A DNA stretch of 64,000 nucleotides from an uncultured Oscillospiraceae bacterium (GCA_959601025.1 CAUGOD010000002.1:6173-70172), one strand, 5' to 3'. Positions 20,376 to 61,671 are shown, counted from the stretch's first letter. Program-made: numbers and translations. The notes: generated by a model not told the origin, from the letters alone.

Positions 20376-20413
20376 GGACACCTTTCCTTTCTTCGGCACA
20401 GGATCCCCCCGGC

Positions 20414-44440: not shown

Positions 44441-44472
44441 AAACTGCGCCTTGGTTAAAGGCGCTTTTTATG

Positions 44473-44549
44473 GCGGTATAGCTCAGTTGGCTAGAGCATG
44501 CGGTTCATACCCGCAGTGTCGTTGGTTCAAATCCGACTACCGCTACCAT
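44473..44549 (+). tRNA. tRNA-Met (CAT), elongator type
   Basis: GGCGGTATAGCTCAGTTGGCTAGAGCATGCGGTTCATACCCGCAG…CGCTACCA. Anticodon loop TTCATAC. Cloverleaf consistent; closely resembles Bacillus elongator tRNA-Met. Encoded CCA. Confidence 0.85.
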
Positions 44550-44553
44550 TTTG

Positions 44554-44627
44554 GCCCGATGGTCAAGCGGTTAAGACACCGCCCTTTCACGGCGGTAACA
44601 CGGGTTCGATTCCCGTTCGGGTCACCA
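44554..44627 (+). tRNA. tRNA-Glu (TTC)
   Basis: GGCCCGATGGTCAAGCGGTTAAGACACCGCCCTTTCACGGCGGTAACACGGGTTCGATTCCCGTTCGGGTCACCA. Nearly identical to Bacillus tRNA-Glu. Confidence 0.9.
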
Positions 44628-44647
44628 CGCAGCGGCGCTGCGTTTAC

Positions 44648-44724
44648 GGGCGTATAGCTCAGCTGGTTAGAGCGCTTGCTTCACACGCAAGAGGTCAGCG
44701 GTTCGAGTCCGTTTACGCCCACCA
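44648..44724 (+). tRNA. tRNA-Val (CAC)
   Basis: GGGCGTATAGCTCAGCTGGTTAGAGCGCTTGCTTCACACGCAAGAGGTCAGCGGTTCGAGTCCGTTTACGCCCACCA. Anticodon loop TTCACAC. Confidence 0.85.
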
Positions 44725-44729
44725 AAAAA

Positions 44730-44761
44730 GCAGCCCACACAAACCGTGTGGGCTGCTTTTT
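44730..44761 (+). terminator. Rho-independent terminator after the tRNA cluster
   Basis: GCAGCCCACAC-AAACC-GTGTGGGCTGC followed by TTTTT. Confidence 0.75.
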
Positions 44762-44966
44762 CGCGTGCGGAGACGGATTCACGGCGAGGGCATTAACGGC
44801 CTGCGGAGCAGGAAGCCGGGGACCGGCCATTCGAGTCTGCTGTCTTTTCTCTTTGGAAGCCTGGGTTGCTTTGTGCGAATTCTCCGCGGTGTGGAACGGT
44901 TTGCTTCGCCCGACGTGAAAGGATAACCGCAAGGGAATCCCGGCCGGCAGGCCCTGAGTCGTCCCC

Positions 44967-46061
44967 TCAGCGCACAACCTCCGTAATCGTTCCCCCGCCG
45001 AGTACGGTATCCCCATCATACAGCACAACCGCCTGTCCCACGGTGATGGCCCTCTGCGGCTCGTCAAATTCCACGTGTATCGTACCGTCGTCCAATGGCC
45101 GGACGGTTGCCCATTGCTCCGCCTGGCGGTAGCGAATTTTGGCTTTTGTCCGCAGGGAAGGCGCTGGGGCGTCAAAGGCAATCCAATTCACATCCCCGGC
45201 AATCAGCCCTTTGGAATACAGCAGGTGTTCATCGCCCACCGATACGGTGTTTTTCTCCATATCCTTGTCATACACATAGACAGGCTTTCCCATGGACAGC
45301 CCAAGGCCCTTGCGCTGTCCAATGGTATATCCAACGGCGCCGCTGTGTTTCCCGACAGCGGCGCCGTTTTCGTCAAGGAAGACGCCGTCGGGATAGGGTT
45401 TGCCCCTATACTGCTCCATAAACTTACCATAATCGCCGTCCGGCACAAAGCAGATATCTTGGCTGTCCGGCTTATCGCAATTCAGAAACCCCTGCTGCCG
45501 GGCGATCCGCCGGGTTTCCCTTTTATACATCGTACCGAGGGGAAACAGGGTGTGTCTCAGCTGATCCTGTGTCATGGCGTAGAGGACATAGCTCTGATCC
45601 TTTGACGAATCCAAAGCCTTTTTTAAAAGGAACCGGCCGTCCTGCTCTTCAATCCGGGCATAATGGCCGGTAACGACATAGGTATATCCCAATTCTCTGG
45701 CCCGGCGGTAAAGACGATCAAACTTCAGATAGCGATTGCAGTCTATACACGGATTCGGCGTCGCCCCGGACTCATATGCCGCAATAAAACGGCGGATAAC
45801 CTGTTTCCTGAAATCAGCGGAAAAATTAAAGACATAGTAAGGGATACCCAGCCGAAACGCCACGCTTCTTGCGTTTTCAACATCCTCCAGAGAACAGCAG
45901 GCTTTTTGCCTGTCCATTCCCATATCTTCGTTGTAAAACAGCTTCATCGTAGCGCCGATGCAATCGTATCCCTGCGTTATCATCAAATAAGCGGCAACGC
46001 TGGAATCCACGCCGCCGCTCATGGCGATAATGGCCGATTTCGTATTCTTGTCCATAGGCAT
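44967..46061 (-). CDS. mnmA: tRNA 2-thiouridine(34) synthase
   Basis: PP-loop SGGVDSS and MnmA-wide similarity (…CIDCNRYLKFDRL…, …DQSYVLY…). Confidence 0.9.
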   Translation of the reverse strand: MPMDKNTKSAIIAMSGGVDSSVAAYLMITQGYDCIGATMKLFYNEDMGMDRQKACCSLEDVENARSVAFRLGIPYYVFNFSADFRKQVIRRFIAAYESGATPNPCIDCNRYLKFDRLYRRARELGYTYVVTGHYARIEEQDGRFLLKKALDSSKDQSYVLYAMTQDQLRHTLFPLGTMYKRETRRIARQQGFLNCDKPDSQDICFVPDGDYGKFMEQYRGKPYPDGVFLDENGAAVGKHSGAVGYTIGQRKGLGLSMGKPVYVYDKDMEKNTVSVGDEHLLYSKGLIAGDVNWIAFDAPAPSLRTKAKIRYRQAEQWATVRPLDDGTIHVEFDEPQRAITVGQAVVLYDGDTVLGGGTITEVVR

Positions 46062-46211
46062 CGTTCCAAACCATCTTTAATTTAAAATATTGGTCTGTCA
46101 ATTCGGACGGAAGGCAGGGATAAGCGGCCTTTCTGCGCTGCGGGGCGTTTCCCCTTTGGAGCTCCCTTTGACGCCGGCAGCCGTATACGGCGGTTCGGCT
46201 GACAAACTCTT

Positions 46212-47129
46212 TTATCCAAGCTCGATCATCCGGTCGATACAAACGCGGGCCCTTTTTATGGTGTCGGCGTCCAGACGGATTTCTTCCGTGACCGTTCCCG
46301 TTAATGTGCGGTATACATCCATCAGGGAGGTCATCTTCATATTCGGGCATAGCAGGTTTTTCGAAAGCGGATAAAAGAATTTGTCCGGACAGCGGTAGGA
46401 AAGATGCTGCGCGATGCTGATTTCCGTACCAATGATAAACTCTTTTTCGGGAGAGCTTTCCGCATATTCCATGATGGCGGAGGTGGAGCCGACAAAGTCG
46501 GCAAGGGCCAGAACGTCCGGCGTACACTCGGGATGCGCCAAAACGGCCGCTTTTGGATGGGCAGCCCGCGCCTGCTGCACTTCCGCCACCGAGACACGCG
46601 CGTGAATGGGACAGCCTCCCTGAAGCAGCTTGAAATTTTTATCCGGTATTTGCTTTGCCACATAGTCGCCCAAATTGCAGTCGGGGATAAAAAGGATATT
46701 TTTGTCCGGCAGCTTTTTCACGATGTTTACCGCTGAGGAGGAGGTTACGCAGACATCACATACCGTTTTCAGTTCGGCGGTCGTGTTGATATACGCGACG
46801 ACCGTATAATCCGGAAAGCGCGCCCGGACGTTTTCCATCAGTTCCCGGTCCATCTGTTCCGCCATAGGACATCCGGCGTTCGCATTGGCGAGGAACACCC
46901 GCTTTTCGGGGGACAGGATTTTCACCGTCTCCGCCATAAAACGGACGCCGCACAGAATAACCGTGCTTTGCGGCGCTTTGCTCGCTTGGACGCTTAGCTG
47001 GAAGGAATCGCCGGTAAAATCCGCAATTTCCGTGACTTCACAGGACTGGTAGCTGTGCGCGAGAATACAGACGTCCTTTTCTCTTTTCAGCCGCCGTATT
47101 TCGTTTTGAATTTTGTTGATGGATAACAT
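46212..47129 (-). CDS. nadA: quinolinate synthase
   Basis: MLSINKIQNEIRRLKREKDVCILAHSYQ… plus three-Cys cluster pattern typical of NadA. Confidence 0.9.
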   Translation of the reverse strand: MLSINKIQNEIRRLKREKDVCILAHSYQSCEVTEIADFTGDSFQLSVQASKAPQSTVILCGVRFMAETVKILSPEKRVFLANANAGCPMAEQMDRELMENVRARFPDYTVVAYINTTAELKTVCDVCVTSSSAVNIVKKLPDKNILFIPDCNLGDYVAKQIPDKNFKLLQGGCPIHARVSVAEVQQARAAHPKAAVLAHPECTPDVLALADFVGSTSAIMEYAESSPEKEFIIGTEISIAQHLSYRCPDKFFYPLSKNLLCPNMKMTSLMDVYRTLTGTVTEEIRLDADTIKRARVCIDRMIELG

Positions 47130-47552: not shown

Positions 47553-50147
47553 ATGAAAAGTCTAGGGAAACGGACGCTGGCCCTGCTGATGGGTACGGCT
47601 ATGCTGCTTTTCACGCTGATTACGACATCGGTTTTATGCGCGGCGTCGTCCGGTAACAGCGACACGGAAACCGCCTATTCGTCCCTGCAGGTGGGTATCA
47701 TGAGCGACATCCACCTGTACGATACGGTGACCGGCGCGGACGATAACCTGAAGAAGATGCTGGAGCTGTATAAGGAAAAGAACGTTGACGCCATCCTGGT
47801 AACAGGCGATATCGCCAATACCAACACCGTGGCGCAGTATCAGAAATTCAATCGTATCTGGGACGAGGCGTTTCCAAACCCGGATGAAGCGCCGGTGCGT
47901 CTGACTTTGATGGGAAATCACGATTATGAATCGTCCATCAATGCGGAACAGAACACGGTCGAGCAGGCGCAGCAGCGGTTTATCGATCAGCTGGGCGGAG
48001 AACTGAACTTCAATCGTGTGGTAAACGGCTATCATTTTATCGGCATGAGCGGCGAGGGCTCGGCGGTCTACGGGAAATTCACGGAAAAGACGGTAAGCTG
48101 GCTGAAGGAACAACTGGACGCCGCCGTGAGCGAGGATCCCGATAAACCAATTTTTGTAGCGGCCCATCAACCGATTTCCAACACCACCTATGGCAGCGAT
48201 CAGGAAGGGAACACCGCCTTTGCCGATCTGCTGAAGGATTACCCTCAGGTGGTGTTTTTCGCCGGTCACTGTCACCGCCCGGCGGAAAATGAACGCTCAA
48301 TATATCAGAAAGATTTCACGGCGGTAGCGGTTCCTTCCCTGCAATATGTAACCGTGGAAACGGGAACTGCGCCGGAAGCTTTTGCTTCGCAGGAAGCATT
48401 GCTTTTGTCGGTGAAGTCGGCGGAACAGAGCATTCATATCGCACGGTATAAAGTGCAGACCATGGATACCTTAAAAGAGGATTGGGTTCTCAGCCTTCCG
48501 CTCTCCACGGAGACCTTCACGTATACGGACGCCCGGGTCAATGACCGCACCGCGCCGGTTTTCCCGGAGAACGCGGCGGTTGCCGTATCCGCTGTAACCT
48601 CCAACTCCTGCAGTATTTCCTTTCCCTCTGCCACGCATGACGATTATGTCCAGGGCTATACCGTTCGGGTAATCGACAGAGCGACGGGCGAGGCGGCGTT
48701 CAGCCGGTTCTTTATCTCGGATTTTTACATCGACCATACAAACATGGCAAAGACGCAGAAGATAGACATTAAGGGCCTGCAGGCGGGAACGGAATATACC
48801 ATTGAGGTAACCGCCTCCGAATCCTTCGGGCTGACCAGTGCACCGCTGACGGAGGAGCTGGAGACCTTCGCCTACAACACGGCGCCGGACGGGATTTCCC
48901 GCGCGGATATTCTGGATGTGGATGGTCATGTGGGCTTTATGGACAATTCCCCCTATCGGGCTCCTTATGAGCTGTACAGCAGCGGTTTCCATCCCACGCT
49001 GGTTTTCGACGAGACGCTGGGACGTCAGGTCATTCAAATCAATCGCTGGATTAACTATCCTACCAGCGCGGGTCTGCTGAAAAAAATCGGCCAGACGGTG
49101 TCGATGGAGGCGGCGTTCCGGGTGGATACGCTGACCGGCCGCCTGACCATCCTGAGCAACCGGGAATCCGGGGGCATCGGGCTGGAAGTGAAGGACGGCG
49201 TGCTGAAGGCGGCGATCCGCCTGGAAAGCGGCGACATCACGGCGGCGTATTCCCTGTCGTCTATTGAGCAGTATTATCATGCGCTGGCAACGTATGACGG
49301 CCAAGCGCTCCGGCTGTATGTGAACGGCGAACTGGCGGATGAAACCGCCGCTTCCGGAACGATCTATTACAACCCGGCAATGTCGCTGATTACCATAGGC
49401 GCGAATCCGGTGCCGGACGGAAATGCCGCGTATGTTTTTAAGGGCAATATTGCGCTGGCCCGCATCTACAGCACCGCGCTGGACGAGGCGGCTGTGGCCA
49501 GGGCGTACGAGTATTATCTCCATGATCCGCAGTATGTGGCGGTGTACAAAAACACGACCATCCTGAAGAATCTGGATGTCAACAATCCCGCGTATTTCCC
49601 GACCGCCTCCACGCTGAACGCGATCAGCCGCCTGATTCAGCAGGGCGAGCAGCTGGACGCGGATGCGGCGATCACGCAGGAAGCCGCCAACGCCTTTGTC
49701 GATGAATCCAATCGGGTGATCGCCGCTTTCTTTGAGGAGATTGGGGAGGAAAATCCGAACCCCGCCACCCCGACCACGGCGATTACGACGCCGGGCGAAT
49801 CCACTTCTTCGTCTACGGAAGGCACTTCTACGGAATCCACCGAGCCGACCTCCTCCGAATCCACCGAGCCGTCTTCACCGACTGAACCGGTTGAAACGAC
49901 TTCGTCGGCCGGGTCCACGGAATCCGCCAAGCCGGGCGAATCGACGGGAGCCCCGGTGGCAACGGAGCCTGTCGTCTCCGGGGAATCCGCCGCGACGACG
50001 GACGGTACGGCGATTCCCACGGACACGGTAACAGCGCCAGCCTCCCCGTCCACCGGGGACAGCGGCGCGGCCTCCCTGCTGTTGCTGGCACTCGCCGCCG
50101 TGAGCGGCAGCGCGGTCGTGCTGCTGAAGAAGCGCGCCCACCTTTGA
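47553..50147 (+). CDS. cell-surface calcineurin-like metallophosphoesterase with FN3-like and LamG/concanavalin-like domains; (S/P)PXTG sortase substrate
   Basis: Start MKSLGKRTLALLMGTAMLLF with RBS AATGGAGGG. MPP motifs (MSDIHLYD, GDIANT, GNHDYE, AAHQP, GHCHR). LamG-like region (…LRLYVNGELADE…). Thr/Ser/Glu-rich stalk. C-terminus …SPSTGDSGAASLLLLALAAVSGSAVVLLKKRAHL. Confidence 0.8.
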   Translation: MKSLGKRTLALLMGTAMLLFTLITTSVLCAASSGNSDTETAYSSLQVGIMSDIHLYDTVTGADDNLKKMLELYKEKNVDAILVTGDIANTNTVAQYQKFNRIWDEAFPNPDEAPVRLTLMGNHDYESSINAEQNTVEQAQQRFIDQLGGELNFNRVVNGYHFIGMSGEGSAVYGKFTEKTVSWLKEQLDAAVSEDPDKPIFVAAHQPISNTTYGSDQEGNTAFADLLKDYPQVVFFAGHCHRPAENERSIYQKDFTAVAVPSLQYVTVETGTAPEAFASQEALLLSVKSAEQSIHIARYKVQTMDTLKEDWVLSLPLSTETFTYTDARVNDRTAPVFPENAAVAVSAVTSNSCSISFPSATHDDYVQGYTVRVIDRATGEAAFSRFFISDFYIDHTNMAKTQKIDIKGLQAGTEYTIEVTASESFGLTSAPLTEELETFAYNTAPDGISRADILDVDGHVGFMDNSPYRAPYELYSSGFHPTLVFDETLGRQVIQINRWINYPTSAGLLKKIGQTVSMEAAFRVDTLTGRLTILSNRESGGIGLEVKDGVLKAAIRLESGDITAAYSLSSIEQYYHALATYDGQALRLYVNGELADETAASGTIYYNPAMSLITIGANPVPDGNAAYVFKGNIALARIYSTALDEAAVARAYEYYLHDPQYVAVYKNTTILKNLDVNNPAYFPTASTLNAISRLIQQGEQLDADAAITQEAANAFVDESNRVIAAFFEEIGEENPNPATPTTAITTPGESTSSSTEGTSTESTEPTSSESTEPSSPTEPVETTSSAGSTESAKPGESTGAPVATEPVVSGESAATTDGTAIPTDTVTAPASPSTGDSGAASLLLLALAAVSGSAVVLLKKRAHL

Positions 50148-50538
50148 AAACCGCCGTTTTTTGGGAACGGTTGGCTTTCCGACAGCCCCCCCTGTACGCC
50201 GGACGTTTGAAGCGGCCGTGTTTTCGCCGCCGTTCCCGCCCTTTGGATTCGGACAGGGGACGGCAAATGACAGCGAAAGAGAGAAAAAGAAGGAAAGGCG
50301 GGAAAAGCCAAAACACGGATAACGACATCCCGAAGGATGGACATAGCCGATTTTCGGATTGGATGGTAGAATACAGGAAGAAGCCCATAAGAAAAGCGTA
50401 AAAAAAGCGTGGCAGTTTATTCAATTTCACAAGGCCATAGGATAACGGCGCCGCCGGGCCCGGGCGTTCCTAAAATTTGATTAAGCTGGACTTACTTTGC
50501 GCTTTGAGGATTTACCGGAATTTTAAGGAGGAGAAAGC

Positions 50539-51906
50539 ATGAAAAAGGCAGTAACCTTAGTAGTAGCGGTTGCCATGCTAATGAGCTGCATCCTGCTGAA
50601 CACCGCGGCGGCGGCGAACGTCTTCGTCGACGAAGCGACAAAGGATTTCGCAGGCGTATTCGAGTACAGCCAGGATACCTGGCAGTTCGAGCAAAACAAT
50701 GACATTGAGGCGACGCTCTATTCCAAGAAAAATATCAACGAGGCATATCTTACGTATAAAGTGGACGGAGCAATCACCAATTTTCGGGTTCTCGCGCATA
50801 TCGCCACCGGATTCGGCGATTTCAGCCTGGATGCGGAAATCTATCTGTCCACCGATAACGAAACCTGGAACCAGGTCGAATTCGACTGCACCAAGCCGGT
50901 TTATAACAGCCACTATCCGACGGAGTCGACAGCCTACTGGTGGGATCAGACGGCAACGGCCAAGGAGAGCCTTTCCGGCAGCTATTCCTATCTGAAAATC
51001 GTTCTCAAGAAATTCGATCAGGTGCCATGGCGTACGGTTATTGACCAGGTGACGATCCAGTATCAGCCGGACGGCTCCACCCCGAGCACCTCCAGCTCGA
51101 CGGCGTCTACTGAGACGACGGCTTCAACCACCGAGTCCACCGCCGCTTCGACCACCGAATCCTCGGCGGCCACGACAGAACCCACCGCCGCCCCGACCAC
51201 GCCCGCGCCGGCGGCTGGGCAGCTGGTCGACGATACCGACGCGAGCTTCTCCAAAACGTTTGACGTTTCCGACAATATCCAGTATGAGGAGAATCCGGAT
51301 CTAAACCGGAACCTGTTCTCCAAAAAGCGCCCGACCAGCCTGCCGGATCCCGACGGCTATGTGATTTACAAGCTGGACGGCGACGTGACCGCGTTCACGA
51401 TCAACGCGGTGGTCTGCAACGCGGACCAGGGGAACAACGGCGTTGTGGACCGCGACCTGTCTGTGTACGTTTCCAAGGACGGCGAGAACTGGGTCAAGGC
51501 GGATATGGAATTCACCGATCCGGCGGTTATCGAAGGCACCAACAACTATTGGATGGACAGCACGGTGACCGGCGCGGTGGATGCGGCTGCGGGCTACCGG
51601 TATGTAAAGGTGCAGCTCAACAGCGTCGATATTGTCGCGGGTATCCCGACTTGGGCGGTTATGCTCGATAAGATCACGATCGACTATCAGACGAACGGCA
51701 CTGCGGAACCCACCGCGACCCCGACGGGAGCGGCTACGGAGGCCCCGGCCAAGATGTCTTCCACGGAAGCTCCGGCAACCACTGCCGCGTCGAAGGATTC
51801 GCCGGTCACGGGCGAGGGCGGCGCTGGAATGGCGGCGGCCCTGATGAGCGTCGCCGTGCTGAGCGCCGGCACTCTGGCGGTCCTGAAAAAGCGGTCCGGC
51901 CGCTGA
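50539..51906 (+). CDS. secreted protein with two beta-sandwich (CBM-like) modules and SPVTG sorting signal
   Basis: RBS AAGGAGG. Signal peptide MKKAVTLVVAVAMLMSCILLNTAAAA. Two related ~150-aa modules (…YLKIVLKKFD…, …YRYVKVQLNSVD…). Ser/Thr/Pro linker. C-terminus …DSPVTGEGGAGMAAALMSVAVLSAGTLAVLKKRSGR. Confidence 0.75.
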   Translation: MKKAVTLVVAVAMLMSCILLNTAAAANVFVDEATKDFAGVFEYSQDTWQFEQNNDIEATLYSKKNINEAYLTYKVDGAITNFRVLAHIATGFGDFSLDAEIYLSTDNETWNQVEFDCTKPVYNSHYPTESTAYWWDQTATAKESLSGSYSYLKIVLKKFDQVPWRTVIDQVTIQYQPDGSTPSTSSSTASTETTASTTESTAASTTESSAATTEPTAAPTTPAPAAGQLVDDTDASFSKTFDVSDNIQYEENPDLNRNLFSKKRPTSLPDPDGYVIYKLDGDVTAFTINAVVCNADQGNNGVVDRDLSVYVSKDGENWVKADMEFTDPAVIEGTNNYWMDSTVTGAVDAAAGYRYVKVQLNSVDIVAGIPTWAVMLDKITIDYQTNGTAEPTATPTGAATEAPAKMSSTEAPATTAASKDSPVTGEGGAGMAAALMSVAVLSAGTLAVLKKRSGR

Positions 51907-51920
51907 TTCCCGGTTTAAAA

Positions 51921-51969
51921 AAGAGCGGTCTCCCGTTCCCCCGCAAAGGATACGGGCACCGCTCTTTTT
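51921..51969 (+). terminator. Rho-independent terminator
   Basis: AGAGCGGT…(inner CCCGTTCCCCCGCAAAGGATACGGG)…ACCGCTCT followed by TTTTT. Confidence 0.6.
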
Positions 51970-52175
51970 AAACGGGGCTGCCGGAAATCCAAAATAAGGA
52001 TAAGTATTTGCCGGGATTTATACATAGCGCGGATTCCGGCCCGATGATACAATAAATCCAGTGAAACAAATCGAAATCGTGTGGGATGACAGCGGGTGGC
52101 TTGATATATTTTTACACCCCCGATTTTGGCATCTTACAGAACCACAAAACAGGGAAACGGGAGGAATTGTTTATG

Positions 52176-52919
52176 AAGAAGATGTTGGCAACAGCGGCTG
52201 CGGCGGTCTTGCTGGTGAGCAGTCTTACGTTCGGCGCGGCTGCGGCGACGGTGGACATCGTACCCAACGCCGAATTCAGCAACGTAGACTCCAAATCCGA
52301 CAACTGGCAGTATGAGAAAAACGCCGACACCCAATATGACTTGTATGTCCGGAACCAAGCGGGCGATCAGGAGATCGTGTTCAAGGCGGACGGAAAAATT
52401 ACCGGTTTTACCGTCGGGCTGCAGATGTGCGCAGGCTTCTTTGAGGAAGGCAACGCGAACCGCGACGTGAAGTTCTATGTATCGGCCGATAAGAGCGACT
52501 GGGAAGAGGTCGGCGTGACGCAGGGGGCGACCACCTTCCGCGAAGATATCTATTTCCTGGAAAATCTGGCCTATTGGTTTGAGACCGACGTAACGTCCAA
52601 GTCCATCTCGGGTACGCCGTCTTATCTGAAGATTGTTATCAAGGATTCGCCGGTCAATGGCGCGCCCTCATGGAATATGGCGATCGACAGCGTCAAGTTG
52701 GAGGTGGAGCCGACCTCCTCCGGCGGCAATGACAACAACAACGACAACAACGGTGACGGTGACAAAGACAATAATAACAGCGGCAGCAGCGGCGGTTCCA
52801 ACAATGGAGGCAGCAGTTCTCCGGCCACCGGCGAGAACAGCGCGGCGGCTTCGGTGGCTGTCCTCTCTGTTATGAGTCTGGGCGTTCTGCTGACGGTCAA
52901 AGCGAAGAAAGCGAAATAG
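52176..52919 (+). CDS. secreted beta-sandwich (CBM-like) protein with SPATG sorting signal; paralog of the 50539 modules
   Basis: Start MKKMLATAAAAVLLVSSLTFGAAAA with GGGAGG RBS. Module …YLKIVIKDSPVNGAPSWNMAIDSVKLEVEP. Low-complexity N/D/G/S linker. C-terminus …SSPATGENSAAASVAVLSVMSLGVLLTVKAKKAK. Confidence 0.7.
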   Translation, partial: KKMLATAAAAVLLVSSLTFGAAAATVDIVPNAEFSNVDSKSDNWQYEKNADTQYDLYVRNQAGDQEIVFKADGKITGFTVGLQMCAGFFEEGNANRDVKFYVSADKSDWEEVGVTQGATTFREDIYFLENLAYWFETDVTSKSISGTPSYLKIVIKDSPVNGAPSWNMAIDSVKLEVEPTSSGGNDNNNDNNGDGDKDNNNSGSSGGSNNGGSSSPATGENSAAASVAVLSVMSLGVLLTVKAKKAK

Positions 52920-53006: not shown

Positions 53007-53591
53007 TTTCATGACTTTCTGGCGGTTCAGCGGCGGGTTTGCCGTTTTCGTATTCGGTTTGTGGTATTCCCGATTTTGGCTTTCTCCGACGCCGGGAAGA
53101 GGAAAGCGGAACTTATCCCGATTTTCCCGGATTGGCGAGGATTCTCCGTGAGCAGGGCGGTCCCCTGTGGATATTCAATAAGGAAGACCGGAAAAAGGTA
53201 TGGCTTCTTCGTCGGGATATCGACCTCGGCTTTTGGCTTGTCCGAAAAGGGGGGGATTCCTTCTGCTTTCCGGATAAGCTGGAATATGGAAAATATTTGT
53301 ATTTCTCCACGGCGTTTTCCTGCCGGACCACCCGGAAAACTGCGAAAAGCCAAAATTGGGATAAGCAGCAGGAGAAACCCGTACATTGTGCAAAATATAG
53401 TGCGATGTTACAATTTACACAGAGAAAAAACGCCGGCTTTTATAAAAGGCGGCGGCATTCTTTCTTTGCGTAAAGTTCGCATTCCCCTATTACAGATTTT
53501 TTGATGGGCAGCAGCAAACAGCCGTATTTTCATGTCAGGCGCAAACCGGCGCGGTCCGGCAAAGCGCTTTTTCGGAAAGGGAGCGAACGAG

Positions 53592-54557
53592 ATGTTGGTT
53601 CCGGGCAAGCAATTTGAATTTGACAATCTGTTTAACGGCGAGCATCGCAAGTTTGGCCCCTTCAATTTGTACCAGGCGGGTGAACTGAGCTGTGTTAACG
53701 GCTATGAGGTGCCGCCGCATAAGCAGTGGTGCCATGAAATTAGCTACGTTGTCAGCGGCGAAGGATTGTTCACCACCAATGGGGAAACCGACCTGCTGAT
53801 TGAAGGCGACATCCATATCTGCCCAATGGATTCCATCCATGCAATCAAGACCGTCAACGACTCGGATCTCCGGTATGCCTATATCGGCTTTGAGTTCAAC
53901 GAGGATGCGGACAGTGAAAGCTTTCAGTATCTGAAGGATTTTTTCAAAAACATTTCGGTGTATAAGGCGAGCGACCGCAACAGCCTGCTGATCCCGCTGT
54001 TCCGCAACCTCGACGAGCTGTACAACAAAGCGATGTTTTATCCGCTGATGGTGGAGACCTACCTGACGCAGATTGCGATTACCTGCTGCCGGTCGTTTGT
54101 CCTGAACCCGATGCCGGTCTACTTCCCGTCGCTGTCGGTGGATTCGGTGGGGCGGTCGGTTTACATGGTGATCAAATACATCGAGAACAACATTTTTGAA
54201 AAGATCGACGTTAAGATCATCGCAAGGGAAGTCGGTTACAACTACTCCTACATATCCGACATGTTCAAGAAAAAAACCGGCATTACTATTCAGCGGTATA
54301 TCAGCAACAAGAAGATACAGAAGGCAATCGAGCTGCTGAAATACGGCAAGCTGAACATTACCCAGGTGGCCCAGCGCCTGAATTATGCGAATATCCAGTC
54401 CTTTAACAAAGCCTTCAAGCGGACTATGGGCTGCGCGCCGACCGATTTCCTCAAAAACTGCAACGAGCAGAACGCGCCGCTGAACGGCGGCTTTGCCGAC
54501 GAGGAGACGGCGCGTCCGGAGGATGACGGCCCGTCCGCATCGGATTCCGCTTTATAG
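53592..54557 (+). CDS. AraC family transcriptional regulator (cluster B)
   Basis: Start MLVPGKQFEF with RBS GGAAAGGGAG. Cupin-like N-terminus; C-terminal HTH (…GYNYSYISDMFKKKTGITIQRYISNKKIQKAIELL…NYANIQSFNKAFKRTMGCAPTDF). Confidence 0.85.
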   Translation: MLVPGKQFEFDNLFNGEHRKFGPFNLYQAGELSCVNGYEVPPHKQWCHEISYVVSGEGLFTTNGETDLLIEGDIHICPMDSIHAIKTVNDSDLRYAYIGFEFNEDADSESFQYLKDFFKNISVYKASDRNSLLIPLFRNLDELYNKAMFYPLMVETYLTQIAITCCRSFVLNPMPVYFPSLSVDSVGRSVYMVIKYIENNIFEKIDVKIIAREVGYNYSYISDMFKKKTGITIQRYISNKKIQKAIELLKYGKLNITQVAQRLNYANIQSFNKAFKRTMGCAPTDFLKNCNEQNAPLNGGFADEETARPEDDGPSASDSAL

Positions 54558-54592: not shown

Positions 54593-54637
54593 GGCCCATC
54601 AACGATTGAGAAGCTTGGGAGTGAGACTGTGCGTAAT

Positions 54638-57562
54638 ATGAGCACCAATGGTTCCAAACGATGGAGAAGAATCCTCGCCGCCCTTGCGGCAGGTATGCTG
54701 CTGGTCTCGGCCGCGCCCTGGGGCGCTCTGGCGGAAAAGGCGGATAAAGCGGGCGAAACGGGAAGGCTGCCGGAGGCGGCGGAGGGCGCCGCTTCGGATA
54801 TTCCGGACTATTTCGGCTACACCCAGGTGCATGGAGAGCAGCCGCGGGCGAAGATGCCGGTCACCCTTCCGGCCAAGGAAGGCGCGCTTTCCGAAAACGA
54901 CGCGGAACGCCGGGCGGAGTACGAGGGAGAGACGGACGTTGCCATCCTTCAAAACGGCGGCTGGATCGAATGGAGCTTTACCTTATCGGAATCCGCCCTG
55001 TATACCCTGGATCTGCGGTATATCGCTCTTCCAGGGACTGGCCGCGACCTGAAAGCGGCATTCGCCCTGGATGGAGCGGCCCCCTTCTTTGGCGCGTCAG
55101 AGCTGGTGCTGAACCGCGTCTGGAAGGACGAGGAAAAGGGGGAGATGGCGCAGGATAAGCAGGGCAACGACCTGATTCCCAATCAGGTCGAGGTGTTTGA
55201 ATACCAGAACCTGCTGCTGACCGACAACTCGGGCTTCCTTTCCGGGGCCTTTGAGGTATATCTGGAGGCGGGAGAGCACACCATCCGTCTGACCAATAAC
55301 GACGATGCGATGGGCGTCGCCTCCCTGACACTGGCCGGGAAGGAGGAGCTCCCCTCCTACGCCGAGGTGAAGGCGGAATACGACGAGATGGGTTACCGGC
55401 CGGTGGGCGGGGCGTACGTCGAACAGCAGGCGGAAAAGACGGAAAAGAAGTCGAGCCAGATTCTGTATCCGGTGTACGACCACACCGAAGCCGCCACCGT
55501 CCCCAACGATCCGGCCAAAATCCGCCGGAATGTCATCGGCCAGTCCAACTGGTCGGATTCCGGCATGTGGATCACTTACCAGGTGGAGGCGCCGGAGGAG
55601 GGGCTTTACCTTCTTTCAATAAAATACCGGCAGAATTCTCAGCTGGGGATGTCCACCTACCGCAATATTTACGTCAACGGAGAAATTCCCTTCCGGGAAT
55701 TTGAGAACGTGTCCTTTCCCTTCAACTTCAACTGGCGGAACATGACTGTTTCCGACGCGGAGGGCAACCCCTGCTATGTCTACCTGAGGAAGGGGACGAA
55801 CGAGATCCGGCTGGAAGCGACGGTCGGCAAATGGACCGATATCCTGCAGGAGGTCAACGCCCTCAACACGGAGATGAACAACCTTTACCGCCGGATTATC
55901 GTGGTGACCAGCACCAGCCCGGACACCTACCGCGATTATCAGCTGGACGTGGAGATCGACGGGCTGGTGGATACGCTGCAGCGCCTGTCGGACTCCCTGT
56001 CCTCCCTGGCGGATACCTTTGACGCGGTCAACGGGGAAAAATCCACCCAGTCCGAAACCCTTCGCCGGGTGGCGGAGCAGCTCCAGAGCTTTGCGGAGGA
56101 CCCGGACGAGATTCCGTCCCGTCTGGGAAATTTCCGGGATAATATCGGCACCATTTCCACCTGGCTGCTGAACAATGTGAAGCAGCCGCTGGAGATTGAT
56201 TACTTCGTGTTCCGCTCCACGGATCAGGAGCTTCCCGCCGCAAAGGCCGGCTTCTTCCAGAGTCTCTGGTTCGGGGTGCGGCAGTTCTTGGCGACCTTCA
56301 GCAGCGATTACAACAGCATGGATGACTGGGAGACGGACGAGGCGATTACGGTATGGTCGACCGACGGCCGAGACCAGGTGCAGGTGCTGAAGGACCTGAT
56401 TACCAACGAATTCACGCCCCAGACCGGTATCCGCGTCAATCTGAACGTGGTACAGACCGGCTTTATTGAAGCAACCCTCGCCGGGCTCGCTCCGGACGTC
56501 GGCATCGGCATGGCCCGCGGCCAGCCCGTCAACCTGGCCTGCCGCGGCGCGCTGGTGGACCTCAGCCAGTTTGATACCTTCGGCGAGGTGATGGCCCGCT
56601 TTTCGGAGGACGCGGCCGTACCCTATCAGTACGACGGCGCGACATACGCCCTGCCGGTTACCCAGCTTTTCTTCATGATGTTCTACCGCACCGATATTTT
56701 CGGGGAGCTGGGCTTGGCCGTTCCCCAGACCTGGGACGAGGTGGACGACGTGGTCGCGGTGCTCCAGCGGAAGAACATGACCATGGGCCTGCCTTATACC
56801 ACCGTTACCGCCCAGACGGCGGTGGATACCGGCGTAGGCGCGAAGGACCTGTTCTCCCTCCTCCTGCTCCAGTATGGCGGGACCTATTACAACGAGGATC
56901 AGACCGCCACCGCGCTGGATTCCCGCGTGGCGCTGGACGCGTTTAAGCGGTGGACGGGATACTATACCGAATTGGGCTTCGACCTGACCTACGATTTCAA
57001 CACCCGCTTCCGTACCGGCGAAATGCCCCTCGCCATCCAGAGCGTGGGTATGTACAGCACCCTGCAGGCCGCCGCTCCGGAAATCCGGGGACAGTGGGCG
57101 ATGGCGCCGGTTCCCGGCATCGAGCGGGGGGATGGGAGCATCGACCGCTCGGTCGGCGCTTCCGGCACGGCCGGCGTAATCTTTGAAAAGGCGGAAAACA
57201 AGGAGGCCTGCTGGAGGTTCCTCGACTGGTACACCAGCACCGAAACCCAGAAGGAGTTCGGCGCCCGGGTGGAAAACCTGCTCGGCCCGGCCGCCCGGTA
57301 TCAGACCGCCAACATCGAGGCCTTCAACGACCTGCCCTGGAGCAGCGCCGAACTGGAGAACCTCGAGTTTCAGCGGAGCTTTGTGAAGGAGATTCCGGAG
57401 GTTCCCGGCAGTTATTTCGTCGCCCGCTGTCTCGACAACGCTTTCCGCGACGTGTTGTACAGCAGTAAGAATCCCCGGACGGCGCTGGAGGCGGAAAACG
57501 AGAACATCAACCGGGAGCTCGAGCGCAAGCGTATCGAGCTGCGCTCCCGGAAAACGCGCTGA
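54638..57562 (+). CDS. giant extracellular solute-binding protein (cluster B paralog of 20414..23299)
   Basis: Start MSTNGSKRWRRILAALAAGMLLVSAAPWGALA (a GTG at 54629 is also possible). Same architecture and many shared blocks with the cluster A SBP (…YRDYQLD…, …QPLEIDY…, …FYRTDIFGELGLAVPQTWDEV…). Confidence 0.8.
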   Translation: MSTNGSKRWRRILAALAAGMLLVSAAPWGALAEKADKAGETGRLPEAAEGAASDIPDYFGYTQVHGEQPRAKMPVTLPAKEGALSENDAERRAEYEGETDVAILQNGGWIEWSFTLSESALYTLDLRYIALPGTGRDLKAAFALDGAAPFFGASELVLNRVWKDEEKGEMAQDKQGNDLIPNQVEVFEYQNLLLTDNSGFLSGAFEVYLEAGEHTIRLTNNDDAMGVASLTLAGKEELPSYAEVKAEYDEMGYRPVGGAYVEQQAEKTEKKSSQILYPVYDHTEAATVPNDPAKIRRNVIGQSNWSDSGMWITYQVEAPEEGLYLLSIKYRQNSQLGMSTYRNIYVNGEIPFREFENVSFPFNFNWRNMTVSDAEGNPCYVYLRKGTNEIRLEATVGKWTDILQEVNALNTEMNNLYRRIIVVTSTSPDTYRDYQLDVEIDGLVDTLQRLSDSLSSLADTFDAVNGEKSTQSETLRRVAEQLQSFAEDPDEIPSRLGNFRDNIGTISTWLLNNVKQPLEIDYFVFRSTDQELPAAKAGFFQSLWFGVRQFLATFSSDYNSMDDWETDEAITVWSTDGRDQVQVLKDLITNEFTPQTGIRVNLNVVQTGFIEATLAGLAPDVGIGMARGQPVNLACRGALVDLSQFDTFGEVMARFSEDAAVPYQYDGATYALPVTQLFFMMFYRTDIFGELGLAVPQTWDEVDDVVAVLQRKNMTMGLPYTTVTAQTAVDTGVGAKDLFSLLLLQYGGTYYNEDQTATALDSRVALDAFKRWTGYYTELGFDLTYDFNTRFRTGEMPLAIQSVGMYSTLQAAAPEIRGQWAMAPVPGIERGDGSIDRSVGASGTAGVIFEKAENKEACWRFLDWYTSTETQKEFGARVENLLGPAARYQTANIEAFNDLPWSSAELENLEFQRSFVKEIPEVPGSYFVARCLDNAFRDVLYSSKNPRTALEAENENINRELERKRIELRSRKTR

Positions 57563-57621
57563 AAACCAACGAAACAAAGCCGTTCGCCTGCCGGCGGACG
57601 GCGTGCGGGAAGGGCTTGATT

Positions 57622-58557
57622 ATGACTATGCACCATCTGCATCGGAGGAAACGCTATCCGCGCGGCTATCTTCGGCAGGAACTGAAAAGGGCCCGCGTCA
57701 GCTATCTGCTGATGGCGCCGTTTCTGTTTTTCTTTATCCTGCTTACGGTGATCCCGGTGCTGGCGTCCATCTTTTTCAGCTTTACCTATTTCAATATGCT
57801 GGAGCCGCCGACCTTCGTGGGCCTGATGAACTACGAGCGGATGTTCCTGGACGACGGCACCTTCCTGATTGTCCTGAAAAATACCCTGCTGTTCGCCTTT
57901 GTCACCGGGCCGATCAGCTACCTGATTTCCTTTTTCTGCGCGTGGCTGATCAATGAGTTCGGGCCGAAGCTCCGCTCGGTCTTCACCCTGGCGTTTTATG
58001 CGCCGGTGCTGACCGGCAATCTCTTCTTCATCTGGACCTACCTGTTCAGCGGCGACCAGTACGGCATCGTGAACAGCACCCTGATGAACCTGGGCATTCT
58101 GGGCGACCCGGTTCAGTGGCTTAGCGACCCGAAAACCGTGCTGCCCGTGCTGATGATTGTCCAGCTTTGGGCAAGCCTTGGCACCGGCTTTCTCGCCTTT
58201 ATCGCCGGGTTCCAGAGCATGGACAAAAGCCTGTTCGAAGCGGCTTCGATCGACGGGATCAAGAACCGCTGGCAGGAGCTGTGGTACGTCACCATCCCGT
58301 CGATGGCTCCCCAGCTGATGTTCTCCGCCGTGATGCAGATCGCCGCCTCCTTCGGCGTGCGGGAGATTATCCAGATGCTCGCCGGCTTCCCCACCACCCA
58401 GTACAGCGCCGACACCATCGTGACCTATATCCTCGATATCGGCACCGTGCGGTTTGAGATGGGATACGCCTCCGCGATCGCGGTGTTCCTGTTTCTGCTG
58501 ATGCTGCTGACCAATTTCATCATAACCCACGCGCTGAAGAGGTTCAGCGTGGATTGA
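57622..58557 (+). CDS. sugar ABC transporter permease (MalF-like), cluster B
   Basis: Start MTMHHLHRRKRY with RBS GGGAAGG. Paralog of 19428..20375. Confidence 0.85.
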   Translation: MTMHHLHRRKRYPRGYLRQELKRARVSYLLMAPFLFFFILLTVIPVLASIFFSFTYFNMLEPPTFVGLMNYERMFLDDGTFLIVLKNTLLFAFVTGPISYLISFFCAWLINEFGPKLRSVFTLAFYAPVLTGNLFFIWTYLFSGDQYGIVNSTLMNLGILGDPVQWLSDPKTVLPVLMIVQLWASLGTGFLAFIAGFQSMDKSLFEAASIDGIKNRWQELWYVTIPSMAPQLMFSAVMQIAASFGVREIIQMLAGFPTTQYSADTIVTYILDIGTVRFEMGYASAIAVFLFLLMLLTNFIITHALKRFSVD

Positions 58558-58622
58558 CGCCGCAGGCCCCTTCTCCGGCTGGATGGAGCGGGGCCGCCGA
58601 ATGAAACGCAAAGGGTGATTCT

Positions 58623-59480
58623 GTGACCAAGGGACTCTTTAAAAAGAACATCAATCGTTCGATAGGCGGCAATCTGCTGGTGTTTTTGGTTGTACTGCTC
58701 CTGGCATGCTTTATGCTGCTGCCGATTGTGTATGCCGTGAGCTCCGCTTTCAAGCCGCTGGATGAAATATTCATTTTTCCGCCGCGGATGTTCGTGCGCA
58801 AGCCCACGCTGGACAATTTCGTCCAGCTTGCGCAGATAACCAGCTCCTCCTGGGTTCCGCTCAGCCGGTACATATTCAACTCCCTGTTTGTCAGCGCGGC
58901 AGGCACCGTCGGCCATATGCTGATGGCCAGCATGGCGGCCTATCCGCTCGCCAAGCATCACTTCATCGGGCAGCGGACCATTTCCGGCGTGGTGAAGCTC
59001 TCCCTGCTGTTCACCTCGGCGGTCACGGCGATCCCGCAGTATATCGTGATGTCCAGCATCGGGATCGTCAATACCTACTGGGCGCTGATCTTTCCGGCTT
59101 TTCAGGCGGCGCTCGGCCTGTACCTGATGCAGAGCTTCATGGGCCAGATTCCGGAGGAGATGCTGGAGGCGGCCCGGATCGACGGCGCGGGCGAGCTGCG
59201 GATATTTTGGCGGATTGTGATGCCGAACGTCAAGCCCGCTTGGCTGACCGTGATTATTTTTTCCTTCCAGACGGTATGGAACAACGTCGGCTCCAGCGTG
59301 ATTTATGATGAAAAGATCAAGCTGCTGGGTTCCCTGTTGACCCAGGTGACGGCCGCCGGCACCGCCCGCGCGGGCGCGGGCGCGGCGCTGGGCCTGATCC
59401 TGATGATCCCGCCGATCCTGCTGTTCGTTCTCTCGCAGCGCCGGGTCATCGAAACCATGTCCACCTCGGGCATGAAGTAG
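58623..59480 (+). CDS. carbohydrate ABC transporter permease (MalG-like), cluster B
   Basis: GTG start with AAAGGG RBS. …AARIDGAGELRIFWRIVMPNVKPA… Paralog of 18426..19334. Confidence 0.85.
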   Translation: MTKGLFKKNINRSIGGNLLVFLVVLLLACFMLLPIVYAVSSAFKPLDEIFIFPPRMFVRKPTLDNFVQLAQITSSSWVPLSRYIFNSLFVSAAGTVGHMLMASMAAYPLAKHHFIGQRTISGVVKLSLLFTSAVTAIPQYIVMSSIGIVNTYWALIFPAFQAALGLYLMQSFMGQIPEEMLEAARIDGAGELRIFWRIVMPNVKPAWLTVIIFSFQTVWNNVGSSVIYDEKIKLLGSLLTQVTAAGTARAGAGAALGLILMIPPILLFVLSQRRVIETMSTSGMK

Positions 59481-59568
59481 GAGGGGCGCCCGTTCCCGTC
59501 CAGAATTTTGCGATCTTCGGGGCGAAACCGCCTCGTCAGAAAGCCGGAAAGGCGTGATTTGGATTACC

Positions 59569-61671
59569 ATGAAGGCGATGAAGAAAAAGCGGCGCGGCGC
59601 CGGCGGTCCAGCGCTGCTGGCGGCACTACTGGCCTCCCTGCTTTGTTTTCCCGGCGCGGCCGAGGGAACGTCTTTCAGCTATACCTACGATTACTGGAAG
59701 AATTCGGTGGAGGTTCCCACTCCCTATACGGCGGAAAAGCCGGTCACCGGCGAAGCACTGGGGCAGGGGAGTCTCAGCACGCCGCAGGACCTGTACGTTA
59801 CCAAAGCGGGAGATATATATATCCTCGATTCCGGCAACAGCCGGATCCTGAAGCTGGACGGCGCGCTTCAGTGTCAGGAGACGATCACCCTGAAAGACGC
59901 GGCCGGAACGCCGATTGAATTTCAGGATGCGCAGGGAATTTTTGTCGAGGAGAGCGGGCGGCTTTATGTGGCGGACAAAAAGGCCCGGACGGTATATGTC
60001 GCGGAAAGCGGCGGCTCGGTCGTTCAGCAGATCGGCGCGCCCCCGGCCGACAAGGTGACCGACGATTTCGACTATACCCCCGCGAAGGTGGCGGTGAATT
60101 CGGCCGGCATTATCTATGTGATTTCCGCCAACACCTATTCCGGCGCGCTGATGTACGAGCCAAACGGCCAGTTCATCGGCTTCTATGGTGCGGAACGGGT
60201 GGCGGTTACGCCGCAGCTGCTGCTCCAGCGCTTCTGGAAAAGCATTCTGAGCGAGGAAGCGGCCTCCGGTATTATGCGGAGCGTTCCGACCTCCTTCATC
60301 AACTTTGACCTGGACGACGGCAATTTCGTGTACACCATCAAGGGCGGCACGGCCCGCGGGGTCGGCCAGGTCCGGAAGCTGAATTCCCTTGGCGAGAACA
60401 TCCTGTTCAACGAGGAGGGGGCGCAGGCGGCCTTTGGGGACCTCGACACCTATTACGACAACCAGACCAACAGCGATATCACCACCACCCTCAACGACAT
60501 TTCGGTGGATGAGGACGGCTTCATCACTGTGACCGACAGCACCCGGGCCAGGGTTTTCCAGTACGACCAGAACAGCAACCTGCTTTACGCCTTCGGCGGG
60601 CAGGCCAACCAGTACGGCACCTTCCAGTCCCCGGTGGCGGTGGATTCGGTCGGGGATCGGCTGCTGGTGCTGGACGCAGGGGCGAACTGCCTCCATGTGT
60701 TCACCCCCACCTCCTTTGGCGCGAACGTCCGCCGGGCTATCCTGCTGTACAACGACGGTCAGTATGAAGAAGCGCTGGAGCCGTGGGAAGCCATCCTGGC
60801 TGAGGACGCCAACTATGAGCTGGCCAACGTCGGCATGGGCAAAATCTACGAGCAGACCGGCGAGTACGACAAGGCGATGGAGTATTACCGCCGCGGCAAC
60901 TACCGTACGGGCTATTCCGATACCTTCAAGGAGGAACGGGCGGATTTCATCCGCGGAGCCTTCCCGGTCATTCTGGCTCTGATCGTTCTGCTGGTGCTCG
61001 GCATGGTGCTCTATACCCGCTATAAAGAGAAGCGCCGGAAGAGCGATTATGAAGTCACCTTCAGCAAATGGCGGTACCCTTTCCAGGTCAGCCTGCATCC
61101 TTTCAAGTCGTATTACGATCTGAAGGTGGAGAAGAAGGGCTCTGTCCTGATGGCGAACCTGATCGTTTTCGCCTTTTTTGTCACCAGCATTGTCCACAGC
61201 CAGCTGACCGGCTTCCATTTCAACGAAAACCGCACCGACCAGTTCAATGTCTTCGTATCCCTGGCGACTACCGTCGGCGTGTTCGTCGTCTGGGTGGTGT
61301 GTAACTGGGCGGTCAGCACCCTGGCCGACGGCGAAGGAACCTTTAAGGAAATTTGGATTTTCACGGCTTACGCGATCCTGCCCTATGTGATCGGCCTGAT
61401 CGTCCTGACGGTCCTCAGCAACGCCTTCACGCTGGAGGAAGCGAGCTTCTATCAAATCGCGCAGGCGATCGTATATATCTGGACCGGCGCGAACCTGCTG
61501 ATGGCGACCCGGGAGGTCCACCAGTATTCGATGGCGAAAACCATTGCGATCATGCTGGGTACCCTGCTGGGAATTTTCCTGGTGCTGCTTTTCGTAACCA
61601 TCGCCTACAGCATGTTTACCCAGCTGGTCAGCTTTATCGGTATGATTTATAACGAAATCCGCCTGAAATAG
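59569..61671 (+). CDS. NHL-repeat / Yip1-domain membrane protein, cluster B paralog
   Basis: Signal peptide MKAMKKKRRGAGGPALLAALLASLLCFPGAAEG. NHL-type repeats (DIYILDSGNSRILKLD, RLYVADKKARTVYVAE). C-terminal Yip1-like TM bundle. Start uncertain (GTG 59554 / ATG 59569 / ATG 59578). Confidence 0.75.
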   Translation: MKAMKKKRRGAGGPALLAALLASLLCFPGAAEGTSFSYTYDYWKNSVEVPTPYTAEKPVTGEALGQGSLSTPQDLYVTKAGDIYILDSGNSRILKLDGALQCQETITLKDAAGTPIEFQDAQGIFVEESGRLYVADKKARTVYVAESGGSVVQQIGAPPADKVTDDFDYTPAKVAVNSAGIIYVISANTYSGALMYEPNGQFIGFYGAERVAVTPQLLLQRFWKSILSEEAASGIMRSVPTSFINFDLDDGNFVYTIKGGTARGVGQVRKLNSLGENILFNEEGAQAAFGDLDTYYDNQTNSDITTTLNDISVDEDGFITVTDSTRARVFQYDQNSNLLYAFGGQANQYGTFQSPVAVDSVGDRLLVLDAGANCLHVFTPTSFGANVRRAILLYNDGQYEEALEPWEAILAEDANYELANVGMGKIYEQTGEYDKAMEYYRRGNYRTGYSDTFKEERADFIRGAFPVILALIVLLVLGMVLYTRYKEKRRKSDYEVTFSKWRYPFQVSLHPFKSYYDLKVEKKGSVLMANLIVFAFFVTSIVHSQLTGFHFNENRTDQFNVFVSLATTVGVFVVWVVCNWAVSTLADGEGTFKEIWIFTAYAILPYVIGLIVLTVLSNAFTLEEASFYQIAQAIVYIWTGANLLMATREVHQYSMAKTIAIMLGTLLGIFLVLLFVTIAYSMFTQLVSFIGMIYNEIRLK

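Follow-up and report, generated by a model that had tools for sequence, protein, structure and literature searches.

Three consecutive genes that encode predicted surface proteins with SPxTG sorting signals are found in a stretch of 64,000 nucleotides from an uncultured Oscillospiraceae bacterium (GCA_959601025.1, CAUGOD010000002.1:6173-70172). This entire stretch is called the window hereafter, and positions are counted from its first nucleotide. The best explanation for the gene products, here named proteins 1 to 3, is that they are exported by the Sec pathway and anchored to the cell surface by a sortase, a reading to which we assign a probability of roughly three in four. The genes and their predicted sorting signals are as follows.

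47553-50147, plus strand: protein 1, 864 amino acids (aa); signal peptide, metallophosphoesterase, fn3, Laminin_G_3 (ConA-like lectin), Ser/Thr/Pro/Glu-rich linker, sorting signal.
50043-50147, plus strand: protein 1 sorting signal; SPSTG, D, 22 hydrophobic residues, KKRAHL.
50539-51906, plus strand: protein 2, 455 aa; signal peptide, two CBM32/discoidin-like beta-sandwich modules split by a Ser/Thr-rich linker, sorting signal.
51799-51906, plus strand: protein 2 sorting signal; SPVTG, E, 23 hydrophobic residues, KKRSGR.
52173-52919, plus strand: protein 3, 248 aa; signal peptide, one CBM32/discoidin-like module, Asn/Gly/Asp/Ser linker, sorting signal.
52818-52919, plus strand: protein 3 sorting signal; SPATG, EN, 20 hydrophobic residues, KAKKAK.

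The C-termini of the three proteins, each followed by its stop codon, are SPSTGDSGAASLLLLALAAVSGSAVVLLKKRAHL (protein 1, nucleotides 50043-50147), SPVTGEGGAGMAAALMSVAVLSAGTLAVLKKRSGR (protein 2, 51799-51906) and SPATGENSAAASVAVLSVMSLGVLLTVKAKKAK (protein 3, 52818-52919), exactly as quoted in the initial annotation of this DNA. That annotation also described a motif, a hydrophobic segment and a basic tail, and this architecture is present in full in all three proteins. The motif lies 34, 35 and 33 residues from the C-terminus of proteins 1, 2 and 3, respectively, and is followed by one acidic residue, 20-23 hydrophobic residues and a K/R-rich tail that runs up to the stop codon. Judged by inspection, proteins 1 to 3, as well as a fourth protein described below, have a Sec-type N-terminus in which a K/R-rich start is followed by some 15-20 residues of hydrophobic core and then by small residues at the cleavage site. 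A GGAGG-type ribosome-binding site precedes each of the three genes. The gene starts given earlier at 47553 and 50539 are correct, and that at 52176 needs to be moved one codon upstream, to the ATG at 52173. The corrected start is preceded by a GGAGG ribosome-binding site, and gene callers applied to other assemblies likewise yield a protein of 248 aa.

The initial annotation took the products for glycan-binding or phosphoesterase surface proteins, and their domains agree with this description. The catalytic domain of protein 1 is, as judged from its sequence, a calcineurin-like metallophosphoesterase of the class III phosphodiesterase group that resembles GpdQ and Rv0805. Pfam matches to Metallophos (4.6e-18), Laminin_G_3 (3.4e-15) and fn3 (1.6e-6) cover the protein, and the metal-binding motifs DxH, GD, GNHD and GHxH are all intact. 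The nearest solved relatives among PDB sequence matches are Rv0805, a class III cyclic-nucleotide phosphodiesterase, and GpdQ, a glycerophosphodiesterase.

The module shared by proteins 2 and 3 has no Pfam family above threshold. Protein 2 gives a weak F5_F8_type_C match (5.5e-5) under the Pfam cut-off, its module copies are 34% and 23% identical to protein 3, and protein 3 itself has no Pfam match. An AlphaFold2 model of protein 3 is a beta-sandwich with a mean predicted local distance difference test (pLDDT) score of 74 and a predicted template modelling (pTM) score of 0.77. When this model was compared with the PDB by Foldseek, it matched CBM32, F5/8 type C and glycoside hydrolase (GH)-appended beta-sandwiches (E of about 2e-4, template modelling score of about 0.45). 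The modelled fold thus suggests that the module binds glycans. A homologue search with protein 3 returned two clusters, although low-complexity query words probably filled the candidate list, and so a narrow distribution is not implied.

The SPxTG motifs are very unlikely to be a by-product of linker composition. A six-frame regular expression for motif, hydrophobic stretch and basic tail was applied to the 142 stop-to-stop segments of at least 150 aa in the window, and the only real genes matched were these three. The linkers are indeed rich in S, T, P and G, and an xPxTG motif appears in 0.2-2% of linker shuffles, both of which speak for motifs that arose by accident in front of ordinary transmembrane anchors. 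However, when the 60-residue linker of each protein was shuffled, SPxTG fell within the last 12 residues with p values of 3.8e-3, 8.2e-4 and 4.4e-4 for proteins 1, 2 and 3, respectively. The joint shuffle probability of three exact SPxTG placements is about 1e-9, which argues that the run of three motifs does not simply reflect linkers rich in Ser, Thr, Pro and Gly. In addition, the acidic residue and the hydrophobic segment always come directly after the motif.

The motifs are also conserved in a sister species. The closest species-representative genome, and the sole relative recovered in a scan with protein 1 (76% identical), is 'uncultured Ruminococcaceae bacterium ERR1430498-bin.11' (L010), whose tetranucleotide correlation with the window is 0.97. 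In this genome the orthologues of proteins 1, 2 and 3 carry SPPTG-D, SPSTG-D and SPATG-E, respectively, and the SPATG-E of protein 3 is likewise retained in a further sequence, P0002. When the last 100 residues of the six proteins from the window and the sister species are aligned, no positions are invariant other than the four motif residues S, P, T and G, a single Ser of the helix and a single Lys of the tail. The linkers have diverged between the two species while S, P, T and G persist. Among eight metagenome assemblies of the window's own species, seven have unchanged tails and one (L114) differs by one or two residues of the hydrophobic segment.

The motif is therefore under purifying selection, in the pattern expected of a motif that is read by an enzyme. 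The alignment and the shuffles effectively refute a chance origin, to which we give almost no weight. On sequence grounds, the interpretation of the three tails as sorting signals is well supported, mainly because S-P-x-T-G is invariant across species.

Sortase anchoring of the three proteins would proceed as follows. After export, the hydrophobic segment and the K/R tail would hold the precursor in the membrane, as the architecture suggests. By analogy with described systems, a sortase encoded elsewhere in the genome would cut between T and G and join the Thr to the peptidoglycan cross-bridge, and this enzyme would most likely be of the clostridial class B type. Outside the wall, long flexible linkers would then present protein 1, whose GpdQ/Rv0805-type metallophosphodiesterase is joined to fn3 and lectin-like domains, along with the CBM32/discoidin-like proteins 2 and 3. 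Judging from synteny only, the proteins would probably bind a glycan and trim it as a substrate for the adjoining importer described below.

Several observations weigh against this mechanism. No sortase gene is present in the 64-kilobase (kb) window, in about 7 kb to its left (L006) or in 5.5 kb to its right (L112), where the flanks were read from contigs with identical window proteins. Also, none of about 180 class B sortase sequences or loci that were retrieved comes from the lineage of the window, the best tetranucleotide correlation being 0.86 versus 0.97 for the sister species. This retrieval was not exhaustive, in that a word-index protein search listed 101 significant sortases and a metagenome scan contributed the best 80 of at least 588 loci. 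Proteins 2 and 3 fall under the cut-offs of the curated hidden Markov models for sorting signals (protein 3 scores 12.2 against 15.9 for TIGR01167, and protein 2 has no match). In Clostridioides difficile, peptides of CD0183 (SPSTG, the motif of protein 1) and CD2768 (SPQTG) are cleaved in vitro, but the proteins are neither cleaved nor anchored by the sortase SrtB in vivo (PMC5569036), and so a perfect-looking motif does not guarantee anchoring. Finally, the link to the importer, while a reasonable one, comes from synteny in two close species only.

PF00746 (Gram_pos_anchor) and TIGR01167 were trained mainly on LPXTG, and protein 1 exceeds the cut-offs of both, with 20.6 bits (cut-off 20) and 20.2 (cut-off 15.9), respectively. 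The low scores of proteins 2 and 3 mainly show that LPXTG models under-detect the SPxTG variant.

The absence of a sortase gene from the window, which the initial annotation reported, is confirmed by searches of several kinds. There is no PF04203 match in any plausible window gene (by Pfam searches and, for the Rnf/MnmA/NadA block, by precomputed Pfam matches), and the TLxTC active-site motif occurs in no real gene of the window. Six-frame searches of the window with a class B sortase profile (hmmsearch) and with class C and class D sequences from PDB alignments (phmmer) gave a best E value of 0.16. The sister species also has no sortase gene inside 10 kb of its protein 1 orthologue.

Sortases retrieved from elsewhere were considered as candidates and rejected. 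Class B sortases of the 'Subdoligranulum variabile TSDC17.2' plasmid records and of conjugative elements, found by tblastn against plasmids with an S. aureus SrtB query that was checked against PDB entries, belong to other lineages (correlations of 0.20-0.85). The same is true for P0016 (60% GC, beside an IPQTG protein) and P0056, which were looked up among the 101 listed sortases (0.81 and 0.60, respectively), and for the 80 metagenome loci found with a nine-sequence class B profile (at best 0.86). Because the window proteins are not compositionally extreme, amino acid composition is useless as a filter for sortases of this genome.

Genes for general-purpose or "housekeeping" sortases commonly lie apart from those of their substrates. 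The absence of a nearby sortase thus carries no special meaning, and the puzzle implied by the initial annotation, of substrates without a sortase, dissolves.

The main rival explanation is that the tails are left unprocessed, such that the proteins stay tethered to the membrane as type-I proteins or are shed by proteases. The lack of a sortase in the window and flanks, the low model scores of proteins 2 and 3, and the behavior of CD0183 and CD2768 all favor this explanation, as does another surface protein nearby that uses a plain membrane anchor and serves as an internal contrast:

9299-10264, minus strand: plain type-I membrane anchor, 321 aa; signal peptide, module resembling a carbohydrate-binding module (CBM), Thr/Pro linker, transmembrane helix, 26-residue cytoplasmic tail, no xPxTG.

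However, this protein also demonstrates that the motif does not automatically accompany a Ser/Thr/Pro linker and transmembrane helix in this genome. Its tail of 26 residues differs from those of proteins 1 to 3, which are short (5-6 residues) and highly basic, as is typical of sorting signals. Moreover, S, P, T and G are strictly kept in three non-orthologous proteins and two species despite changing linkers and domain copy number, a finding that is difficult to reconcile with a motif that no enzyme reads. We therefore regard membrane retention as distinctly unlikely and favor sortase anchoring.

If a sortase does read these signals, it might belong to another class (A, D, E or F) or to a lineage-specific subfamily, in which case the match to SrtB specificity would be only a resemblance. 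The motif alone cannot give the class of an unseen enzyme, and the class B profile searches recovered no sortase from the lineage of the window. In addition, NCBIfam holds a separate anchor model for the NPXTG motif of Ruminococcus (NF033846, cut-off 23.5 bits), which points to lineage-specific diversity of motifs and sortases; protein 1 scores 17.9 with this model and proteins 2 and 3 have no match. On the other hand, the experimentally assigned SPxTG substrates that we found in the literature all depend on a class B-type sortase (PMC4371152, PMC13121745), and non-Leu xPxTG[D/E] signals adjoin class B-family sortases in the loci that we fetched, in searches that were not exhaustive. Thus, a different class is possible, though unlikely, and a class B-type enzyme is preferred.

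A further protein of the window has a tail that only partly resembles those of proteins 1 to 3.

25385-27901, minus strand: protein 4, 838 aa; signal peptide, four CBM-like modules without a Pfam match, QVNTG tail.
25385-25480, minus strand: protein 4 tail; QVNTG, E, AVRIIPAALLLTAGVTLLAL (20 hydrophobic residues), RRKKK.

The C-terminus of protein 4, GGGQVNTGEAVRIIPAALLLTAGVTLLALRRKKK followed by the stop codon, agrees with the earlier description of VNTGEAV, a hydrophobic segment and RRKKK. This tail was previously taken to be either a plain transmembrane anchor or a non-canonical signal. The position corresponding to P in the (S/P)PxTG class is occupied by V. An exhaustive HMMER search revealed few relatives of protein 4. 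The closest one outside its own species, P0171 (55% identity), ends in SPSTG, VGIRLLPLALIGFAGAAVVIL and KKKK, with SPSTG at the position of QVNTG. Other homologues end in VPQTG, VPPTG, GVDTG (P0173) or SPSTN, have no motif, or carry a dockerin.

The SPSTG of P0171 at the same site and the tails of the other homologues argue that QVNTG descends from a sorting signal. QVNTG is a variant or a decayed sorting signal, and we consider a functional variant and a decayed signal that now serves as a membrane anchor about equally likely. The T-G pair is kept, and xVxTG recurs in several lineages, including the protein 1 homologues P0116 (NVHTG-D) and P0151 (TVKTG-D), which gives a hint that QVNTG may still be read. 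Weighing against a functional signal, the analogous NVQTG is not a substrate of C. difficile SrtB in vitro (PMC4371152).

Modules 1 and 2 of protein 4 are almost identical, with about 205 residues repeated. A conspecific variant (P0170, 615 aa) has three modules rather than four, so that strains differ in how many copies they carry.

The metallophosphoesterase and fn3 core of protein 1 recurs in other lineages with varied surface anchors (P0106-P0169, homologues of the product of 47553-49751). Dockerins (PF00404) are found in P0106, P0108-P0117, P0154, P0161 and P0164, an SLH anchor in P0144, LysM in P0141, and (A/V)PxTG-D sorting signals among P0118-P0142. Some homologues have tails that resemble plain membrane anchors and end in KKRKG. 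Judging by these architectures, members of this enzyme family are as a rule displayed on the surface. Two of the homologues, P0152 and P0153, are annotated with a GH98 domain, and GH98 genes are present in the window at 7255-9423 and 23413-25200.

Immediately downstream of the three genes lie a regulator and a sugar importer.

53532-54557, plus strand: AraC-family regulator, directly downstream; Pfam HTH_18 and AraC_binding; syntenic counterpart in the sister species, 90% identical.
54629-63998, plus strand: sugar ATP-binding cassette (ABC) importer cluster; 977-aa solute-binding protein whose N-terminal half is CBM-like, two permeases, Yip1/NHL/TPR membrane protein, DUF5696 protein crossing the end of the window.

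Their synteny makes the importer encoded by 54629-63998 a possible functional partner of the surface proteins. A paralogous cluster at 13737-23299 (minus strand) has the same unusual layout as that at 54629-63998 (plus strand). Besides two permeases and a DUF5696 protein, both encode a Yip1/NHL(/TPR) membrane protein of roughly 705 aa and a binding protein of roughly 970 aa whose N-terminal half is CBM-like. More generally, sugar ABC importers whose binding proteins are very large, together with GH98, GH31 and DUF5696 proteins and AraC regulators, predominate in the 64 kb as a whole. An exact-protein look-up of the product of 59554-61671 returned no record. An unusual fusion of regulator and enzyme is encoded at 4034-7147 (minus strand) in the same glycan and phosphoester context, where a protein of 1037 aa combines an AraC-type helix-turn-helix (residues ~212-288) with a weak glycerophosphodiester phosphodiesterase (GDPD) match (~695-786).

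No regulatory RNA, such as a cyclic di-GMP (c-di-GMP) riboswitch, was detected at threshold upstream of the three genes, and the faint matches that were seen are on the wrong strand only. Promoter and terminator scans performed no better than with shuffled sequence.

The host of the three genes is an uncultured human-gut Ruminococcaceae bacterium. Exact-protein look-ups found proteins identical to those of the window in many human-gut metagenome assemblies and in the metagenome-assembled genome GCA_964316795.1, and the GC content of the window is about 60%. A megablast comparison of the window with the plasmid collection PLSDB gave no match. In the sister species the gene order RnfB, protein 1, protein 2, protein 3, AraC, binding protein and permeases is kept. 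Proteins 1 to 3 are 74-79% identical between the two genomes, compared with 89-99% for the flanking genes (89% for the importer binding protein, 96% and 99% for the permeases). This difference indicates that the three surface proteins are fast-evolving. Protein 2 has two modules in the window (455 aa, 50539-51906) and three in the sister species (612 aa, L010 12885-14723).

A block of tRNA-Met/Glu/Val, MnmA and NadA genes sits between RnfB and protein 1 in the window (44472-47129). It is missing at that position in the sister species (L010 9113-10000), where protein 1 comes directly after RnfB, and the difference is a local rearrangement. The 7-kb region beyond the left end of the window (L006 11100-18169) has a GC content of 48.8%, versus about 60% for the genome, and contains many short open reading frames without Pfam matches. 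It could be an island of foreign origin or a mobile element that has degraded.

The observations on the surface proteins, the regulator and the importer can be joined in a tentative and rather doubtful scheme, in which proteins 1 to 3, the AraC regulator and the ABC importer would form a single Gram-positive polysaccharide-utilization unit. Wall-anchored CBM32-like lectins would capture a glycan decorated with phosphodiesters, and the GpdQ-type phosphodiesterase would strip these groups before import. The same scheme holds that the xVxTG tails (QVNTG, NVHTG, TVKTG, GVDTG and the NVQTG of C. difficile) are a distinct sorting class and not decayed signals. If it is true, the glycan of the unit could be, for example, a host or microbial phosphoglycan or a polymer like teichoic acid.

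Both the SPxTG motif class and an unlinked sortase are ordinary and have been described before, and the findings are of modest importance and raise no new mechanistic question. They do add an uncultured lineage of high-GC human-gut Ruminococcaceae to the clostridia that use SPxTG rather than LPXTG. Two of the three proteins escape models trained on LPXTG, and the wall-anchored proteins of such gut commensals are accordingly undercounted in genome annotation. The occurrence of one phosphodiesterase core on sortase, dockerin, SLH and LysM anchors is also useful when the surface proteome of uncultured gut Firmicutes, and their apparatus for glycan foraging, are to be predicted.

Anchoring of such a core can be compared with known systems on several levels. 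The dockerin, SLH and LysM homologues (P0106, P0108-P0117, P0144 and P0141) share the core of protein 1 with 36-50% identity and are also destined for the cell surface. They differ in being anchored non-covalently, through cohesin-dockerin, S-layer-homology or LysM interactions, whereas protein 1 has a sortase-type signal.

Loci around clostridial class B sortases offer a broader comparison. About 90 such loci were fetched from plasmid-labelled Oscillospiraceae assemblies, from exact-protein look-ups and from the 80 metagenome loci. Their substrates carry TPMTG, TPKTG, TPQTG, IPQTG, SPQTG, FPKTG, MPKTG, LPKTG and LPQTG, and the residue after the motif is almost always D, E or S. The SPxTG-D/E tails of the window fit this clostridial class B pattern of xPxTG followed by D, E or S. 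Individual gut-Clostridia pairs include those with TPQTG (L013), IPQTG (L018), SPQTG (L065), TPMTG (L083-L096), FPKTG/MPKTG (L089-L090) and TPKTG (L091, L110 and L111). They share with the window proteins a non-Leu xPxTG-D/E/S motif, a transmembrane segment, a basic tail and an origin as large multidomain surface proteins from the gut metagenome. Their sortase gene lies less than 10 kb from the substrate gene and usually directly downstream, whereas the window proteins are without such a neighbor, and no fetched pair comes from the lineage of the window.

Among the fetched loci, a class B sortase gene lies directly downstream of that for a leucine-rich repeat surface protein ending in TPQTG (L013 9077-12594), another is on a 23.9-kb circular element of 62% GC beside an LPQTG protein (L016 11749-13270), and a third is within a conjugative element beside VirB4-like, VirD4-like and CHAP-domain genes (L017 7806-8576). 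These three records are labelled 'plasmids' and come from Subdoligranulum or Monoglobus co-culture assemblies, but they look like unbinned contigs of chromosomes or of integrative and conjugative elements. In a gut bacterium of another lineage with 60% GC (L018 5176-8801), the class B sortase P0016 is encoded directly downstream of a 912-aa Cys-rich surface protein with IPQTG-D. This pair adjoins the conserved housekeeping genes yicC, remA, gmk, priA, def and fmt and exemplifies a sortase and substrate encoded together on a chromosome.

In C. difficile, too, most substrate genes are to our knowledge not located beside the sortase gene. This bacterium provides the closest parallel in motif, its SrtB substrates (CD0386, CD3392, CD2537, CD2831 and CD3246) having the same class of S-P-x-T-G motif, a hydrophobic segment and a short basic tail in the same class, Clostridia. 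The initial annotation had pointed to the (S/P)PXTG specificity of C. difficile SrtB, and all three proteins and all six orthologue sequences fit it (PMC4371152, PMC5569036). SrtB cleaves SPKTG between T and G and links the product to meso-diaminopimelic acid (PMC4371152), and CD0386, CD3392 and CD2537 show SrtB-dependent wall anchoring in vivo (PMC4371152, PMC5569036). The window differs in its order and family (Ruminococcaceae, 60% GC), in its passengers, where a phosphodiesterase and CBM32-like modules take the place of the collagen-binding adhesins of C. difficile, and in having no c-di-GMP riboswitch upstream of the genes.

The signals of the window also have the same tripartite form as canonical LPXTG signals (S. 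aureus SrtA; PF00746/TIGR01167), with cleavage expected between T and G, but they have Ser in place of Leu at position 1. The IgA protease of T. ramosa carries an SPXTG motif as well (PMC12402451). The SPXTG superantigens IbpA and IbpB of Mediterraneibacter gnavus, a human-gut commensal clostridium, need SrtB3 for wall localization (PMC13121745), and here it was shown genetically that one class B sortase among several is needed. M. gnavus differs in belonging to the Lachnospiraceae and not the Ruminococcaceae, and in having passengers that bind immunoglobulin instead of carbohydrate or phosphoester substrates.

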